Sequence record: PQ390715.1
Direction: 5' to 3' (one strand)
Length of the DNA: 64,000 nucleotides
Source: Escherichia phage SHEFM2K
Both the position numbers and the translations under genes were made by a program. Shown piece by piece: positions 16,384-21,187 of the stretch (positions within the stretch are counted from its first letter, which is position 1; each line of letters begins with the position of its first letter). The notes beneath the pieces are model-generated. The model saw only the letters and a program-made list of their open reading frames with translations. It did not search any database and was not told the origin of the DNA.

Positions 16384-16575
16384 TTACTTTCTATATATAA
16401 GCATTAAGATATAGTAGTACTGATTATACTGTACATTCTCTTTAATATTATAAGGGTCTATAGCAATCTCGGTACATCTGTTAAATGCATATCTATTAAA
16501 TGCCAGTGGAATTATAGATCTAATCCATACTTGTTCATTTTCTTTTAGTTTACTTATATAGAAGTTTTTATACAT
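16384..16575 (-). CDS. Small-array paralog 1 (63 aa), subfamily A (C-term ...LIYRK)
   Basis: ORF track; family signature N-term M..K(E/N)FY, central Cys, hydrophobic C-term. Confidence 0.6.
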   Translation of the reverse strand: MYKNFYISKLKENEQVWIRSIIPLAFNRYAFNRCTEIAIDPYNIKENVQYNQYYYILMLIYRK

Positions 16576-16590
16576 AGTATTCTCTATTAA

Positions 16591-16773
16591 TTAATATGAT
16601 AGTACTAGTGTTAGTACTGAGCACAATTGTTCTTTATAGTTCTTATGGTATATAGAATCTTTTATGCACTCATTGAAGTGCCATAGGTATAATCTTGGGT
16701 CGCATTCTTTATATATTCTTACGGGGACGAATGTTAGTTTTCGTATATAGAATTCTTTATGTTCTTTATTCAT
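16591..16773 (-). CDS. Small-array paralog 2 (60 aa), subfamily A
   Basis: ORF track; MNKEHKEFY N-terminus. Confidence 0.6.
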   Translation of the reverse strand: MNKEHKEFYIRKLTFVPVRIYKECDPRLYLWHFNECIKDSIYHKNYKEQLCSVLTLVLSY

Positions 16774-16774
16774 A

Positions 16775-16963
16775 TTAGTACCTGAATATAAGTAGGATTA
16801 TGTTATAGTACTGGTTAGTACTGCAATGATTCTCTATACATCGATTAACAGTTATGGAATAGCTATATCTGGCGTAAGCATTATCCAGGGGGATTTTACA
16901 TTGAGCACTTAGAGAAAGTACAGTAGGTAGTGTATTCAAATAGAAGTCTTTGTAATTATTCAT
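16775..16963 (-). CDS. Small-array paralog 3 (62 aa), subfamily A (...LLIFRY)
   Basis: ORF track. Confidence 0.6.
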   Translation of the reverse strand: MNNYKDFYLNTLPTVLSLSAQCKIPLDNAYARYSYSITVNRCIENHCSTNQYYNIILLIFRY

Positions 16964-17165
16964 ACAGGAATAGTATACCTATGATGCCGGAGTACAGGTT
17001 AGTACTGTTACCATCTTCATTTGCGTTTAAAGTCATTTGAATACAATTATTGTAGCATACTCTGCCGAAAAATGTATTAGTACTTAAAGGTGGAGTAGTC
17101 CTTAGAAACATTTGTTCTGAGGGGCTTATGTATTTGGAGTAGAATTCTTTATGTTCTTTATTCAT
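16956..17165 (-). CDS. Small-array paralog 4 (69 aa), subfamily A2 (close to 20549-20758)
   Basis: ORF track; MNKEHKEFYSKY...NNCI...LYE. Confidence 0.6.
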   Translation of the reverse strand: MNKEHKEFYSKYISPSEQMFLRTTPPLSTNTFFGRVCYNNCIQMTLNANEDGNSTNLYSGIIGILFLYE

Positions 17166-17170
17166 ATTAG

Positions 17171-17356
17171 TTAGTGTCTGTATATAAGTAATAGTAAGAA
17201 TACGTACTGCACATCTTCATCTTTAGTATTGAGTACTGTACGTATTGCGTCATTAAACAAGAATATAGTACTTGGGTCATGAGAATTTAAAGGGGTTCTG
17301 GGTACGGCACATTTGTAGTTCCCTTTAACAAATTGTGTGTAGTATTCTCTATGCAT
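17171..17356 (-). CDS. Small-array paralog 5 (61 aa), subfamily A
   Basis: ORF track. Confidence 0.6.
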   Translation of the reverse strand: MHREYYTQFVKGNYKCAVPRTPLNSHDPSTIFLFNDAIRTVLNTKDEDVQYVFLLLLIYRH

Positions 17357-17357
17357 A

Positions 17358-17543
17358 TTAGTACCTATATATTAGGGCGATAATGTAGTACAATTCATAT
17401 GGAATGTAATTTGGGGTGATCGCACACTGTGTATGGTAAATGAATTGTTCGGTATTTTTCTTATCCTTGATATCTATTGGGATTAGTGGTATAAGCATTT
17501 GGGAGTTTAGATCGAGATGGCTTAAGTAGAATTCTTTATGCAT
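17358..17543 (-). CDS. Small-array paralog 6 (61 aa), subfamily A
   Basis: ORF track. Confidence 0.6.
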   Translation of the reverse strand: MHKEFYLSHLDLNSQMLIPLIPIDIKDKKNTEQFIYHTQCAITPNYIPYELYYIIALIYRY

Positions 17544-17552
17544 ATTGTTCTC

Positions 17553-17741
17553 TTAGAATACGAAAGCTAGGTACAGGGTATGATACAGTACTCGATGGTA
17601 GCTGTCATGATCTAGTATACATGCTTTAGTGCACATAGTAAAGTACACTTTATCGTTTTGTGCATTGATACCGCGAGGTTTATCTAATAGATTAGTACTG
17701 AGGTACATTGGGAAATATTTTGTGTAGTATTCTTTATGCAT
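17553..17741 (-). CDS. Small-array paralog 7 (62 aa), subfamily A
   Basis: ORF track trimmed to MHKEYY start. Confidence 0.55.
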   Translation of the reverse strand: MHKEYYTKYFPMYLSTNLLDKPRGINAQNDKVYFTMCTKACILDHDSYHRVLYHTLYLAFVF

Positions 17742-17742
17742 A

Positions 17743-17925
17743 TTAGTACCTGAATATAAGTAGGATAGTGTTATATAGCTGGTCATAACTACTACTATTT
17801 TCTATACTTCGTTCTATGCAGTTATTGAATCCCAGTACTGCCAAATCGTTATCCATAGGGACTTTATATCTGGCGTAGTGTTCAAAAATGCTGGGGAGAA
17901 ATTGTGTGTAGTATTCTTTGTGCAT
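17743..17925 (-). CDS. Small-array paralog 8 (60 aa), subfamily A
   Basis: ORF track. Confidence 0.6.
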   Translation of the reverse strand: MHKEYYTQFLPSIFEHYARYKVPMDNDLAVLGFNNCIERSIENSSSYDQLYNTILLIFRY

Positions 17926-17926
17926 A

Positions 17927-19352: not shown

Positions 19353-19541
19353 TTACATAGAGATGAGTTTCAGTACATCAATATACATATAACGTTCAGA
19401 TGACTGTACACGGGTAGTGATAATCTCAATCGATATGTTTTTAATTAGAGGTGAAGATGATTGATGGTTCTGAATAAATGTGTGGTGCATACTTTGTTCT
19501 ATGTGGTTTAGTTTATTGAAGTAGTACTCAAAAGTGTTCAT
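19353..19541 (-). CDS. Small-array paralog 13 (62 aa), subfamily B (...DVLKLISM)
   Basis: ORF track. Confidence 0.6.
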   Translation of the reverse strand: MNTFEYYFNKLNHIEQSMHHTFIQNHQSSSPLIKNISIEIITTRVQSSERYMYIDVLKLISM

Positions 19542-19548
19542 GTCTACC

Positions 19549-19728
19549 TTAGATTGAGATTAGTTTAAGTACTTCTCTGTACGTGTACTTTTCGTTTTGT
19601 GCTTCTACTGTACACGAGAGTAGATAACGTTTTTTATCTCTTTTGTTCCCGACTGTGTAGTACCTTTGGAATTTATTATAGTTGTATCTATCTTTGTGCT
19701 GGAGGTTATAGATATAGAATTCTTGCAT
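19549..19728 (-). CDS. Small-array paralog 14 (59 aa), subfamily B, not in ORF track
   Basis: Manual translation MQEFYIYN...EKYTYREVLKLISI. Confidence 0.55.
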   Translation of the reverse strand: MQEFYIYNLQHKDRYNYNKFQRYYTVGNKRDKKRYLLSCTVEAQNEKYTYREVLKLISI

Positions 19729-19736
19729 AGAGTACC

Positions 19737-19922
19737 TTATATTGCTATCAGTTTGAGTACTTCAATATATGTGCGGTACTCTGCTTTAATTAAATTTGTA
19801 CACACTGTAAGGGAATTTCTTTGTATAAGTTTATTGCCGCTTTTATACGCATTTCTCCACACATAGAGATGAGATCTTTCAGGCATAGATAGTTTATTGG
19901 TATAGTACTCAAATGTATTCAT
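19737..19922 (-). CDS. Small-array paralog 15 (61 aa), subfamily B
   Basis: ORF track. Confidence 0.6.
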   Translation of the reverse strand: MNTFEYYTNKLSMPERSHLYVWRNAYKSGNKLIQRNSLTVCTNLIKAEYRTYIEVLKLIAI

Positions 19923-19930
19923 ATATTACC

Positions 19931-20113
19931 TCAAATAGAGATTAGTTTAAGTACTTCTCTGTATGTGTACTTTTCGTTTTGTGCATCTCTTGTGCTTGTA
20001 TATAGGTATCCTCGACGATATTTGTTGCTCCCGTTCTTGTAGTTGAATTCGAACTTATTGTAGATGAATCTATCGCCAGGCTGTAATTTACTTAAGTACA
20101 ATTCAATGCTCAT
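19931..20113 (-). CDS. Small-array paralog 16 (60 aa), subfamily B
   Basis: ORF track trimmed to MSIELYLSKL start. Confidence 0.55.
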   Translation of the reverse strand: MSIELYLSKLQPGDRFIYNKFEFNYKNGSNKYRRGYLYTSTRDAQNEKYTYREVLKLISI

Positions 20114-20123
20114 AGTATTCTCT

Positions 20124-20309
20124 TTACATATCAATAAGTTTCAGTACTGCTCGGTACGTGTACTTAGTTGTCAGTGCTTCTTTAATAGAAATACAGAAGT
20201 AATGTTGTTTGTCTCTTATACTGCCGCGTTTGTAGTACCACACATGGGAGTTGTGACTGTACTTGTCTCTGTCGGATAGTTGTTGGTAGTAGTAGCTTAT
20301 ATGATTCAT
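20124..20309 (-). CDS. Small-array paralog 17 (61 aa), subfamily B
   Basis: ORF track. Confidence 0.6.
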   Translation of the reverse strand: MNHISYYYQQLSDRDKYSHNSHVWYYKRGSIRDKQHYFCISIKEALTTKYTYRAVLKLIDM

Positions 20310-20361
20310 TATAATGTAATTAGCCTTACTATATTAAAGTACTCGGTCCCTGGTGTACCTT

Positions 20362-20556
20362 TTAGAACTTAAAGATGAGGTTCAGGATAGAGCGGTACTT
20401 AGTTTCAGGGAACTGATGTTCTATTGCATAACGTGTCACCATCCTGAAATCGTAATTATAATACAGATTATCCTTTCTCATAGGTGGTGCTAAAGAGAAT
20501 GATAGCTGTTCTTGTTTGGGTAGTTTACTACAATAGAAATCTTTATGATTATTCAT
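20362..20556 (-). CDS. Small-array paralog 18 (64 aa), subfamily A
   Basis: ORF track. Confidence 0.6.
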   Translation of the reverse strand: MNNHKDFYCSKLPKQEQLSFSLAPPMRKDNLYYNYDFRMVTRYAIEHQFPETKYRSILNLIFKF

Positions 20557-20758
20557 AGAAATATATTAGTCCTATTAAACCTGAGTACATAATATTTTTG
20601 TTATTGCATTCGATTGCTTCTAGAGTACTACGTATACAATTATTAAAGCAATCTCTACCGAATTGAGTATTGGTACTTACAGGTGATACACTCCTTAGAA
20701 ACAATTGTTCTTCGTTGCTAAGGTATTTGGTGTAGAATTCTTTATGTTCAGTATTCAT
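20549..20758 (-). CDS. Small-array paralog 19 (69 aa), subfamily A2
   Basis: ORF track; close paralog of 16956-17165. Confidence 0.6.
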   Translation of the reverse strand: MNTEHKEFYTKYLSNEEQLFLRSVSPVSTNTQFGRDCFNNCIRSTLEAIECNNKNIMYSGLIGLIYFYE

Positions 20759-20759
20759 A

Positions 20760-20963
20760 TTAGTACTCGATTAATAGGGTAAGGATGTAATAGTATTGCA
20801 TACATTCTACCCCTTGTAAAGCATTTCTTATGTTATTATTCCTGTACGAGTTCAGGAGTTTAGGGCTACGTTTGAGGTGTTTGAAATTAGTTTGTGTATG
20901 CAGTAGGCTTTCACGTAGACCTTTTGTTGGTAGTGCATCGATGTAGTACTGTTCGATATTCAT
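20760..20963 (-). CDS. Small-array paralog 20 (67 aa)
   Basis: ORF track. Confidence 0.55.
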   Translation of the reverse strand: MNIEQYYIDALPTKGLRESLLHTQTNFKHLKRSPKLLNSYRNNNIRNALQGVECMQYYYILTLLIEY

Positions 20964-21187
20964 ATAGATAGCAGTACTAAGATTTTTGATAATTGTTTAT
21001 TGCTATCCCCGCAGATGTTGCTGTGTAAAATACTCACAATGAGGGTATCAATTGCATTGTTCATCATAAGGGTGCATCCTGGACTATTATAATTTTTTAG
21101 CTCAATTAGCCACGAACTATCCGCGAGAAATTCCCCGTACTCTAGTTCATTTAGAGTATTGAGGTAGTACTTAAGAGTATTTGTCAT
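20960..21187 (-). CDS. Small-array paralog 21 (75 aa), first gene of the operon, divergent
   Basis: ORF track; AAGGAG SD; promoter upstream. Confidence 0.55.
   Translation of the reverse strand: MTNTLKYYLNTLNELEYGEFLADSSWLIELKNYNSPGCTLMMNNAIDTLIVSILHSNICGDSNKQLSKILVLLSI

Follow-up and report, generated by a model that had tools for sequence, protein, structure and literature searches.

In this Asteriusvirus jumbo phage, positions 16384–21187 form one polycistronic operon. Twenty of its genes are divergent versions of the same protein, which is about 60 residues long. The window (the whole 64,000-nucleotide stretch analysed here) was assigned to an E. coli jumbo phage of the genus Asteriusvirus (121Q/PBECO4-type). 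The operon lies on the minus strand and comprises 22 genes: 21 small genes of 59–75 aa and one gene of 219 aa. All 21 small ORFs, including the three of 59 aa that fall under a 60-aa cut-off and had been added in the first-pass annotation, are present, and phage vB_EcoM_E9.1, a 99% identical relative, has each of them annotated as a CDS (“hypothetical protein”). To our knowledge, few phage genomes have a single protein family repeated 20 times in tandem, and literature searches found no published discussion of this one. The genus, which includes jumbo phages of E. coli and Salmonella, is used therapeutically.

Layout of the operon and its genome setting

The features are listed below in the order of transcription; family assignments were made with HMMs unless stated otherwise.

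21260–21290, plus strand: promoter-like motif AAATATGATATAATGA and AAGGAG site of the first RCC1-like gene, from motif copies; part of the neighbouring array, not of the operon
21213–21241, minus strand: sigma70-like promoter, TTGACA-17 nt-TACTAT, from motif match and conservation
20960–21187, minus strand: g22, first gene, 75 aa; family membership unsupported by leave-one-out HMM and hhalign
20760–20963, minus strand: g21, family A, 67 aa; borderline member, overlapping g22 by an ATGA
20549–20758, minus strand: g20, family A, 69 aa, “...YFYE” type
20362–20556, minus strand: g19, family A, 64 aa; 8-nt overlap of its start with the g20 end
20124–20309, minus strand: g18, family B, 61 aa, basic, pI 9.4
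19931–20113, minus strand: g17, family B, 60 aa; start as in the E9.1 annotation
19737–19922, minus strand: g16, family B, 61 aa
19549–19728, minus strand: g15, family B, 59 aa; chosen for AlphaFold
19353–19541, minus strand: g14, family B, 62 aa
19165–19344, minus strand: g13, family B, 59 aa
18495–19154, minus strand: g12, unrelated orphan of 219 aa; phrog_29152, unknown function
18320–18502, minus strand: g11, family A, 60 aa; ATG within the final g12 codons, 8-nt overlap
18139–18318, minus strand: g10, family A, 59 aa
17927–18130, minus strand: g09, family A, 67 aa
17743–17925, minus strand: g08, family A, 60 aa; chosen for AlphaFold, the basis of this entry
17553–17741, minus strand: g07, family A, 62 aa; annotated start preferred over an upstream ATG giving 77 aa
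17358–17543, minus strand: g06, family A, 61 aa
17171–17356, minus strand: g05, family A, 61 aa
16956–17165, minus strand: g04, family A, 69 aa, “...FLYE” type
16775–16963, minus strand: g03, family A, 62 aa; found in only some related phages
16591–16773, minus strand: g02, family A, 60 aa
16384–16575, minus strand: g01, last gene, family A, 63 aa, from junction inspection
16090, no strand: boundary of the ~21-kb direct terminal repeat, the physical genome end, from alignment of record starts

The genes are tightly packed: 97% of the interval is coding, and neither a minus-strand terminator-like site nor an internal promoter match of at least 11/12 was found within it. Spacing had been given as 0–10 nt with overlaps; this describes most of the array (−8 to +10 nt at 19 of the 21 junctions) but not the 52-nt gap between g19 and g18 or the 15-nt gap between g02 and g01. 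The array had also been taken as uninterrupted, which is incorrect, because the unrelated 219-aa gene that splits it had been overlooked. This orphan keeps the same position in every phage examined, has homologues restricted to the same genus and no match in Pfam, and contains four CAGTACTG palindromes.

In alignments, the E9.1 and fEgEco12 records both begin at window position 16090, and the terminal repeat covers window positions 1–16090. The fEgEco12 termini were set by PhageTerm and restriction digests (PMC13070987). The last gene of the operon, which is directed into the repeat, stops 294 bp short of the boundary. On the opposite side, 103 bp of divergent region separate the operon from an array of RCC1-like genes on the plus strand, the first of which starts at 21291; 21291–22400 matches Pfam RCC1_2 with 41.9 bits (cut-off 22) and 22470–23648 matches Pfam RCC1 with 28.1 bits (cut-off 21.7).

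Two families, their fold and their evolution

The small genes comprise 14 members of family A, 6 members of family B and g22. In leave-one-out HMM searches, 19 of the 21 were recovered with E-values of 2e-5 or better (range 1e-5 to 1e-17), a family signal far above chance. The first gene of the operon gave a leave-one-out E-value of 0.63 and an hhalign probability below 1% against either family, although its ends resemble the family (N-terminus LKYYLNTL, C-terminus ILVLLSI); its identity in other phages is 77–100%, with a dN/dS of 0.49. Because of these results, the proposal of 21 equal paralogues can be kept for 20 genes but not for g22. The neighbouring g21 is a borderline case (leave-one-out E 0.002, family-A HMM E 1e-10). 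The central cysteine, described as a shared feature, is present in 13 of the 21 small genes.

A plain HMM cross-search between A and B gave no significant detection (best E 0.05). Alignment of the two profiles with hhalign gave a probability of 91% (E 1e-6) over the full length (53 columns), and still 69% (E 4e-5) when the window sequences alone were used. Judged from these profile comparisons, families A and B are distant homologues within one superfamily. PHROG 11711, of unknown function, matches 13 of the 14 family-A genes over their full length (best E 1.2e-27); at E < 0.01 it misses g21, g22 and family B, and family B has no PHROG match. The PHROG record carries no annotation, and the tandem 20-copy arrangement is not in it.

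Confident AlphaFold models were obtained for g08 from family A (pLDDT 93.6, pTM 0.76) and g15 from family B (pLDDT 91.2), with pTM 0.72–0.76 across the two. Both models consist of four helices in identical order, and fold searches with them returned no specific structural relative. The conserved columns are mainly hydrophobic, and the remaining columns are variable. The C-terminal helix is very hydrophobic (e.g., YNTILLIFRY), which could point to self-assembly rather than to the host-directed role discussed below. Five of the six family-B members are basic (pI 9.2–9.6, charge +2.6 to +5.6). Family B was considered as an HTH or sigma region 4-like regulator, a candidate that was rejected since neither a Pfam HTH domain nor an HTH fold was found.

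Neither family was found outside this genus in an exhaustive search of 1.84 billion proteins. Among seven phages the gene order is collinear, with cassettes gained and lost (17–22 genes), and across the genus A and B fall into about 100 sequence clusters. Orthologues are 60–100% identical, whereas the median paralogue identity is 28–36%. The paralogues are thus old, with duplications that are not recent amplifications, and the description of the array as “hypervariable” is overstated and finds no support. The longest internal repeats (246 nt at 74% identity and 178 nt at 70%) are ordinary paralogue pairs, the former being the recent paralogues g20 and g04. Diversification by DGR-type cassettes was also rejected: there is no near-identical template/variable pair, and variation between phages tracks orthologue divergence.

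The pooled orthologue dN/dS is ~0.45, which is 2–3 times that of most neighbouring genes. By part, it is 0.24 for the N-terminal 12 codons, 0.54 for the middle and 0.36 for the C-terminal 14 codons, and synonymous changes reach into the conserved termini as well. Values near or above 1 were seen for g14 and g01 alone and depend on few substitutions. Every ORF is intact in the six genomes that were verified. On these substitution patterns, the small genes are real and under purifying selection. It had been asked whether the family signature might be an artefact of AT-rich repeats; the constrained termini, the pLDDT values of 91–94 and the lack of a DNA repeat array in the region by Tandem Repeats Finder all speak for a genuine family.

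Gene junctions and promoter

Families A and B had been set apart by their C-terminal sequences. The families themselves are real, but the C-terminal subfamilies largely match the designs of the gene junctions, so the signature is partly a translation signal at the nucleotide level. In the “...RY*” junctions of family A, the Shine–Dalgarno sequence lies within the AGG-TAC codons: all five such ends read AGG-TAC-TAA-T-ATG, while AGG makes up 9% of background Arg codons. In the last gene, which has no gene downstream, the C-terminal Arg is encoded by AGA rather than AGG. The “...YE*” junctions overlap the next ATG by 8 nt, and in family B TAAGGT directly follows “...ISI*”. The C-terminal signatures are therefore partly dual-coded, serving also as the ribosome-binding or overlap junction of the next gene, which illustrates neatly that a translation signal can pass for a conserved protein motif. 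The array was produced by tandem duplication around this conserved junction of ~45–66 nt, which takes in a gene's end, the ribosome-binding signal and its successor's start.

The TTGACA-N17 promoter had been placed correctly at 21213–21241. Its spacer contains the palindrome CAGTACTG (21222–21229), and the operon's first ATG has an AAGGAG ribosome-binding site before it. The region is kept almost base for base in 8 phages, and its layout of TTGACA with an AGTACTG spacer is common to perfect promoters in the adjacent terminal repeat. The operon promoter matches at 10 of 12 positions, and shuffled sequence yields sigma70-like matches at least as often as the region does; the timing of expression is therefore something that we infer. 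The two arrays had been proposed to share one divergent control region. They are indeed physically adjacent; the operon, however, has a sigma70-type −35/−10 promoter, whereas a −35-less motif, AAATATAGTATAATGA, precedes eight starts in the RCC1 region (8 copies, at most 2 mismatches). At least four genes of that region also carry a terminator hairpin.

Possible functions and known parallels

Searches of Pfam, PADLOC and the PDB, by sequence or by fold, gave no match that would assign a function, and no known inhibitor or anti-defence protein was among the PDB sequence and fold matches; PADLOC, which models defence rather than anti-defence systems, returned one weak match (E 0.0024). Tentatively, and with a little less than even confidence, we favour early, translationally coupled accessory proteins, in which a conserved core carries variable surfaces that bind targets in the host or in rival phages. 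Host RNA polymerase would transcribe the operon from the sigma70-type promoter early in infection, and coupling between the cistrons would mean that the proteins are made in similar amounts. The products, presumably cytoplasmic four-helix proteins of ~60 aa, would retain their aromatic and hydrophobic core while their surfaces engaged different macromolecules, a repertoire for host takeover or counter-defence whose breadth would come from the number of paralogues. Such host-directed binders would amount to a ready set of some 20 natural variants, all built on a single 60-aa scaffold predicted with confidence, that could be screened for new host targets or for counter-defence activities. The array shows no overall sign of an arms race (dN/dS < 1), and its stable collinearity differs from typical fast-turnover counter-defence islands; both observations count against a host-directed role.

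An unlikely alternative is binding of nucleic acid: the small proteins would serve as regulators or as architectural proteins on DNA or RNA of the phage or the host, e.g., near the genome end, with the basic family B as the main binder. The 294-bp distance to the terminal-repeat boundary and the density of the over-represented palindrome CAGTACTG in the region are consistent with it. The small proteins might also be chaperones, adaptors or inhibitors that partner the adjacent RCC1-like beta-propeller paralogues, the two head-to-head arrays diversifying together. The 103-bp spacing, the multiple and variable copies of both families, and the detection by mass spectrometry of the RCC1-like gp549 and gp551 in phAPEC6 virions (PMC7247149) fit such a partnership. 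A place for the small proteins in the virion or the head interior was considered too and found no support: the rows of that dataset that were examined list no array protein in the corresponding gene-number range, e.g., the family-B orthologue gp545c, although small proteins can escape mass spectrometry. We consider a partnership distinctly improbable, since related genera carry RCC1 arrays without any small-gene array: in the Klebsiella and Yersinia relatives fENko-Kae01 and fHe-Yen9-04, both families are missing from the syntenic junction between RCC1 array and terminal repeat. The differing promoters and the separate terminators of several RCC1 genes also argue against it, as do copy numbers (20 versus about 12) that are not 1:1.

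It is very unlikely that the paralogues co-assemble into a hetero-oligomeric “split” alpha-solenoid, with repeat units translated separately and the conserved termini as the inter-subunit interface. Each modelled protein is predicted as a confident monomer, and copy numbers of 17–22 without loss of the array suit a machine of fixed stoichiometry poorly. Any three-helix up-down unit would yield solenoid-like matches; the likeness to HEAT/ARM and VHS/CID/ENTH alpha-alpha solenoids is of the kind expected of any three packed helices, at a sequence identity of 0–21%, and each A or B unit, unlike those, is a free-standing protein. We give very little weight to the specific form in which ~20 coupled helical units, joined head-to-tail by their N- and C-terminal helices, make a non-covalent scaffold re-tuned by gain and loss of cassettes; if true, it would be a repeat protein with individual genes as its repeats. 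Least probable is that the ORFs are incidental and that the region acts as DNA, for instance as a tandem repeat of ~190 bp that has diverged or as a zone rich in AGTACT beside the packaging end. The junction DNA does recur with a period of 184–200 nt, AGTACT and GTAC are enriched in the region and overlap conserved Val-Leu and Tyr codons, and the coding-strand composition is unusual. Against this stand the intact ORFs in all six verified genomes, the dN/dS of 0.24–0.54 with synonymous changes even in the termini, the confident folds and the lack of a repeat array.

The host-directed reading has parallels elsewhere. The SPO1 host-takeover module, the Twort-like “Tre” genes and the T5 pre-early region are clusters of small orphan genes at or in long terminal repeats, made up mostly of unrelated genes, each with its own promoter of the host sigma70 type. 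Our operon resembles them in its small orphan genes, its position by the terminal repeat and its sigma70-type promoter, but differs in that one family has expanded 20-fold behind one weaker promoter just outside the repeat. The predicted layout in the related phage CBB matches such clusters, and RpoD-like promoters there mark predicted early genes for short hypothetical proteins (PMC5259590). In Bacillus phage G, also a jumbo phage, a small domain has undergone a lineage-specific expansion to about 35 zinc-ribbon genes (PMC7824862). These genes and the A/B array are both outsized paralogue families of a tiny protein of unknown function in one jumbo-phage lineage; A and B, unlike the zinc ribbons, are all-helical, without metal ligands, strictly tandem and apparently translationally coupled. 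Near-terminal tandem paralogues whose copy number varies between isolates are also known from large eukaryotic DNA viruses, as the MGF110/360 genes of ASFV and the “gene accordions” of poxvirus K3L amplification, which in those viruses are tied to host range and immune evasion. The A/B array shares this arrangement, but belongs to a different virus realm and has old duplications.

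Layout and membership of the operon

The operon occupies 16384–21187 on the minus strand, with the genes running from g22 (first) to g01 (last). The array of 21 small genes described in the first-pass annotation was recovered in full, as 21 minus-strand ORFs of 59–75 aa, all of which are annotated CDSs in Escherichia phage vB_EcoM_E9.1 (E9.1). The array is not uninterrupted, since an unrelated 219-aa gene, g12 (18495–19154), which had been missed, lies between the tenth and eleventh small genes. The reported spacing of 0–10 nt with overlaps was reproduced, at values between −8 nt (overlap) and +10 nt, for all junctions except g19/g18 (52 nt) and g02/g01 (15 nt). 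About 146 of the 4804 nt are non-coding, and neither a terminator-like site on the coding strand nor an internal promoter match of ≥11/12 was found within 16384–21187. The single promoter proposed for these genes was found as TTGACA-17-TACTAT at 21241–21213, with AAGGAG and then the first ATG downstream of it; the stretch from promoter to first ATG is near-invariant across eight phages. A candidate promoter for g18 in the 52-nt gap (10/12 match) was rejected, because its −10 overlaps the g18 ATG. The operon is also unusual in composition: G/A/V/D/E codons make up 17%, compared to 29–35% in other genes, TAC accounts for 62% of Tyr codons, compared to a 29% background, the GC3 skew is −0.35, and the plus-strand GC skew stays positive over the operon, in which it differs from all other minus-strand genes of the window.

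Assignment of the small genes to families
Family A: g01–g11 and g19–g21 (14 genes); 13 match PHROG 11711, which has no functional annotation
Family B: g13–g18 (6 genes); no PHROG at E < 0.01
g22: placed in neither family; leave-one-out E 0.63, hhalign below 1% against A and against B

Leave-one-out profiles, built without the gene being tested, recognized 19 of the 21 genes (E 2e-5 to 7e-17), with g21 marginal (E 0.002). The two families did not detect each other in plain HMM cross-searches (best E 0.05). Profile-to-profile comparison of enlarged alignments (72 sequences for A and 35 for B) gave a collinear match over 53 columns, with 91% probability and E 1e-6. AlphaFold2 models predicted helices at residues 3–7, 12–18, 27–42 and 46–58 in family A (g08; pLDDT 93.6) and at 2–7, 11–26, 29–43 and 46–58 in family B (g15; pLDDT 91.2). 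From the profiles and models, we conclude that A and B constitute one superfamily of two families with 20 supported members. The earlier description of 21 paralogs in two subfamilies is thus retained for two related families and 20 genes, but not for g22, the resemblance of which to the array is limited to short terminal motifs.

Selection, gene junctions and evolution

In 62 orthologue pairs, dN/dS was 0.24 for the first 12 codons, 0.54 for the middle and 0.36 for the last 14 codons, and synonymous changes were present in all three parts. Since the conserved termini are under purifying selection and synonymous changes do occur, the family is not a composition artefact of AT-rich sequence, an explanation that the first-pass annotation had itself raised. 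The pooled dN/dS was ≈0.45 for A, B, g22 and g12, compared to 0.13–0.31 for nearby genes of the terminal repeat and for the first RCC1-like gene, and 0.77 for one RCC1 pair. As judged from these ratios, selective constraint on the operon is relaxed yet present. In the operon region, Tandem Repeats Finder did not detect the ≈190-bp period and Rfam returned nothing relevant.

The minimum of dS falls in the C-terminal codons (0.118). All five genes ending in "...RY*" that have a downstream gene carry AGG-TAC-TAA-T-ATG, although in the window's long ORFs AGG makes up 9% of Arg codons and TAC 29% of Tyr codons. At these junctions, an AGGT Shine–Dalgarno sequence lies 6 nt upstream of the next ATG; g01, which has no gene downstream, has AGA instead of AGG. 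Genes ending in "...YE*" terminate in TAT-GAA-TAA, which encloses the ATG-AAT-AA of the next gene. In family B, the stop codon is TAA or TGA, in most cases with GG(T/A) immediately after it and the next ATG a few nt on; g15 and g16 have TAAGGT at this point. The conserved termini are therefore probably in part translation signals. The junction DNA also forms 45–66-nt direct repeats at 184–200-nt spacing, between which unequal crossing-over could plausibly occur.

The gene order, as seen in the window and in six verified genomes, is g22, A (2–4), B (3–6), the 219-aa g12 and A (9–11), with 17–22 genes per array. Clustering at 55% identity gave 22 orthogroups in collinear order, with cassettes present or absent. 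Paralogues within the window have a median identity of 28% (A) or 36% (B), and orthologues are mostly 60–100% identical; the duplications are therefore old, and the term "hypervariable", previously applied to the array, is an overstatement.

Genomic setting, distribution and the RCC1 array

The 5.5 kb around the operon is 99.1% identical to E9.1 and 89–98% identical to JP4, SP27, 121Q, slurp01 and ≈30 other E. coli/Salmonella jumbo phages with genomes of 310–386 kb. The phages matching the operon region belong to the genus Asteriusvirus, in the Rak2-like group. In reverse orientation, the E9.1 and fEgEco12 records align with their first position at window position 16090. For fEgEco12, PhageTerm and restriction digests established both the termini and a direct terminal repeat of 20,993 bp (PMC13070987). 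Window 1–16090 is therefore terminal repeat, and 16090 maps by alignment to the physical genome end, the start of a direct terminal repeat of ≈21 kb. The last operon gene, transcribed towards this boundary, stops 294 bp short of it. No convincing ORF was found in the ≈2 kb around the boundary (14440–16384), which contains short tandem repeats, three copies of the 8-bp palindrome CAGTACTG at 16111–16189 and predicted divergent strong promoters.

Word-indexed database searches yielded 66 A clusters and 33 B clusters, and the locus tags of the matches group at one locus. When 1.84 billion representatives were scanned exhaustively by HMM, 32 matches were obtained, all ≈60-aa proteins of the same clade except P0107 (531 aa), which was rejected as an unrelated simple-repeat protein. 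The most divergent matches, P0117 and P0123, were rejected as relatives beyond the genus, as they map to Asteriusvirus phages A4, JNE01 and Turkey5. In Klebsiella phage fENko-Kae01, the terminal repeat directly adjoins the RCC1-like array, and in Yersinia phage fHe-Yen9-04 that array extends to the record end; six-frame HMM scans found no A or B genes at either syntenic locus. Because the families are confined to the clade and these loci lack them, the operon has the appearance of an insertion specific to Asteriusvirus, at the point where the RCC1 array meets the terminal repeat.

The operon and the plus-strand RCC1 array are indeed head-to-head, with 103 bp between them, but the proposal of a shared divergent control region does not extend to one control unit, since the RCC1 side has its own motifs and hairpins and RCC1 arrays occur without small genes in related genera. 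The −35-less motif AAATATAGTATAATGA (≤2 mismatches) and AAGGAG precede eight RCC1-region starts, and a hairpin, GCCAGTAC(nnnn)TACTGGC with a T-run, lies upstream of at least four RCC1-like genes, followed by AAATATAGTATAATGA and AAGGAG.

Near-identical hairpin/AAATATAGTATAATGA/AAGGAG cassettes before RCC1-like genes
22400–22470
23648–23720
27250–27322
28470–28542
and similar

Through its cassette, each of these RCC1-like genes is predicted to have a terminator and a −35-less promoter of its own, and AAATATAGTATAATGA probably represents a phage-specific promoter class. At 24910–27250 and 29908–33078, several RCC1-like ORFs are overlapping, GTG-started or cassette-less, which suggests that these paralogues are frameshifted, fused or rearranged. 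AAATATAGTATAATGA also occurs within ORFs at 26081, 29774, 31026 and 32239.

Expression and possible function

The operon promoter shares its layout (TTGACA, with AGTACTG in the spacer) with the perfect TTGACA-16-TATAAT promoters of the adjacent terminal repeat, and has a weaker −10. The terminal repeat (1–16 kb) contains nine 12/12 sites of the form TTGACA-16/17-TATAAT, all on the minus strand, and several 11/12 sites, a very dense predicted battery of consensus sigma70 promoters. A conserved box, TACATCAA, follows each perfect one.

Perfect sigma70 promoters (minus strand, sequence match)
1747, 2175, 2515, 3485, 4173, 5287, 5869, 12648, 15725

In CBB, a related phage, the predicted early, host-takeover genes that RpoD-like promoters mark code for short hypothetical proteins (PMC5259590). 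From the shared layout and this comparison, we infer early expression of the operon. Neither a transcriptome for the genus nor a discussion of the array was found in the Asteriusvirus literature.

The array is genuine: an orphan protein family with a predicted four-helix fold has been expanded in tandem to an unusual size, in one putatively translationally coupled operon beside the terminal repeat. Lineage-specific small-gene expansions are already known from large phages, and the Asteriusvirus array is an uncharacterised further case. The best-supported reading, which we put forward tentatively, is that its products act early, as accessory proteins that bind targets in the host. They have a cytoplasmic character (negative GRAVY) and a high Tyr content (11%), and their conserved columns are mostly hydrophobic or aromatic. 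A rival reading is nucleic-acid binding; five of the six family B members are basic (pI 9.2–9.6), and charges in family A are mixed. The proteins might instead be partners of the RCC1-like proteins. Among the phAPEC6 virion proteins listed in the rows examined, two are RCC1-like and none comes from the array (PMC7247149). Self-assembly into a split solenoid is another rival. Finally, and improbably, the region could be a DNA-level element, a reading to be weighed with both the junction repeats and the selection on the encoded termini.

The palindrome CAGTACTG occurs 61 times in the window, compared to 0.89 expected. It is densest at 12300–16200, with further copies at 21222–21229 and at 18542–18789 in g12, which holds four. 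AGTACT occurs 277 times, an estimated ≈12 times the base-composition expectation, with 6–8 per kb in both the terminal repeat and the operon versus 2–4 per kb elsewhere. Many palindrome copies sit in promoter spacers, immediately 5' of TATAAT, and CAGTACTG may serve some phage or host factor as an operator or recognition site.

Among related phages, only ELP-22 and JNE01 match the 474-aa minus-strand ORF at 40225–41649 over its full length; the matching ELP-22 region is annotated as "homing endonuclease" and "hypothetical protein". Many other phages have HNH or putative endonucleases that match the C-terminal part of the 474-aa ORF, and 40225–41649 is likely a mobile homing-endonuclease insertion.
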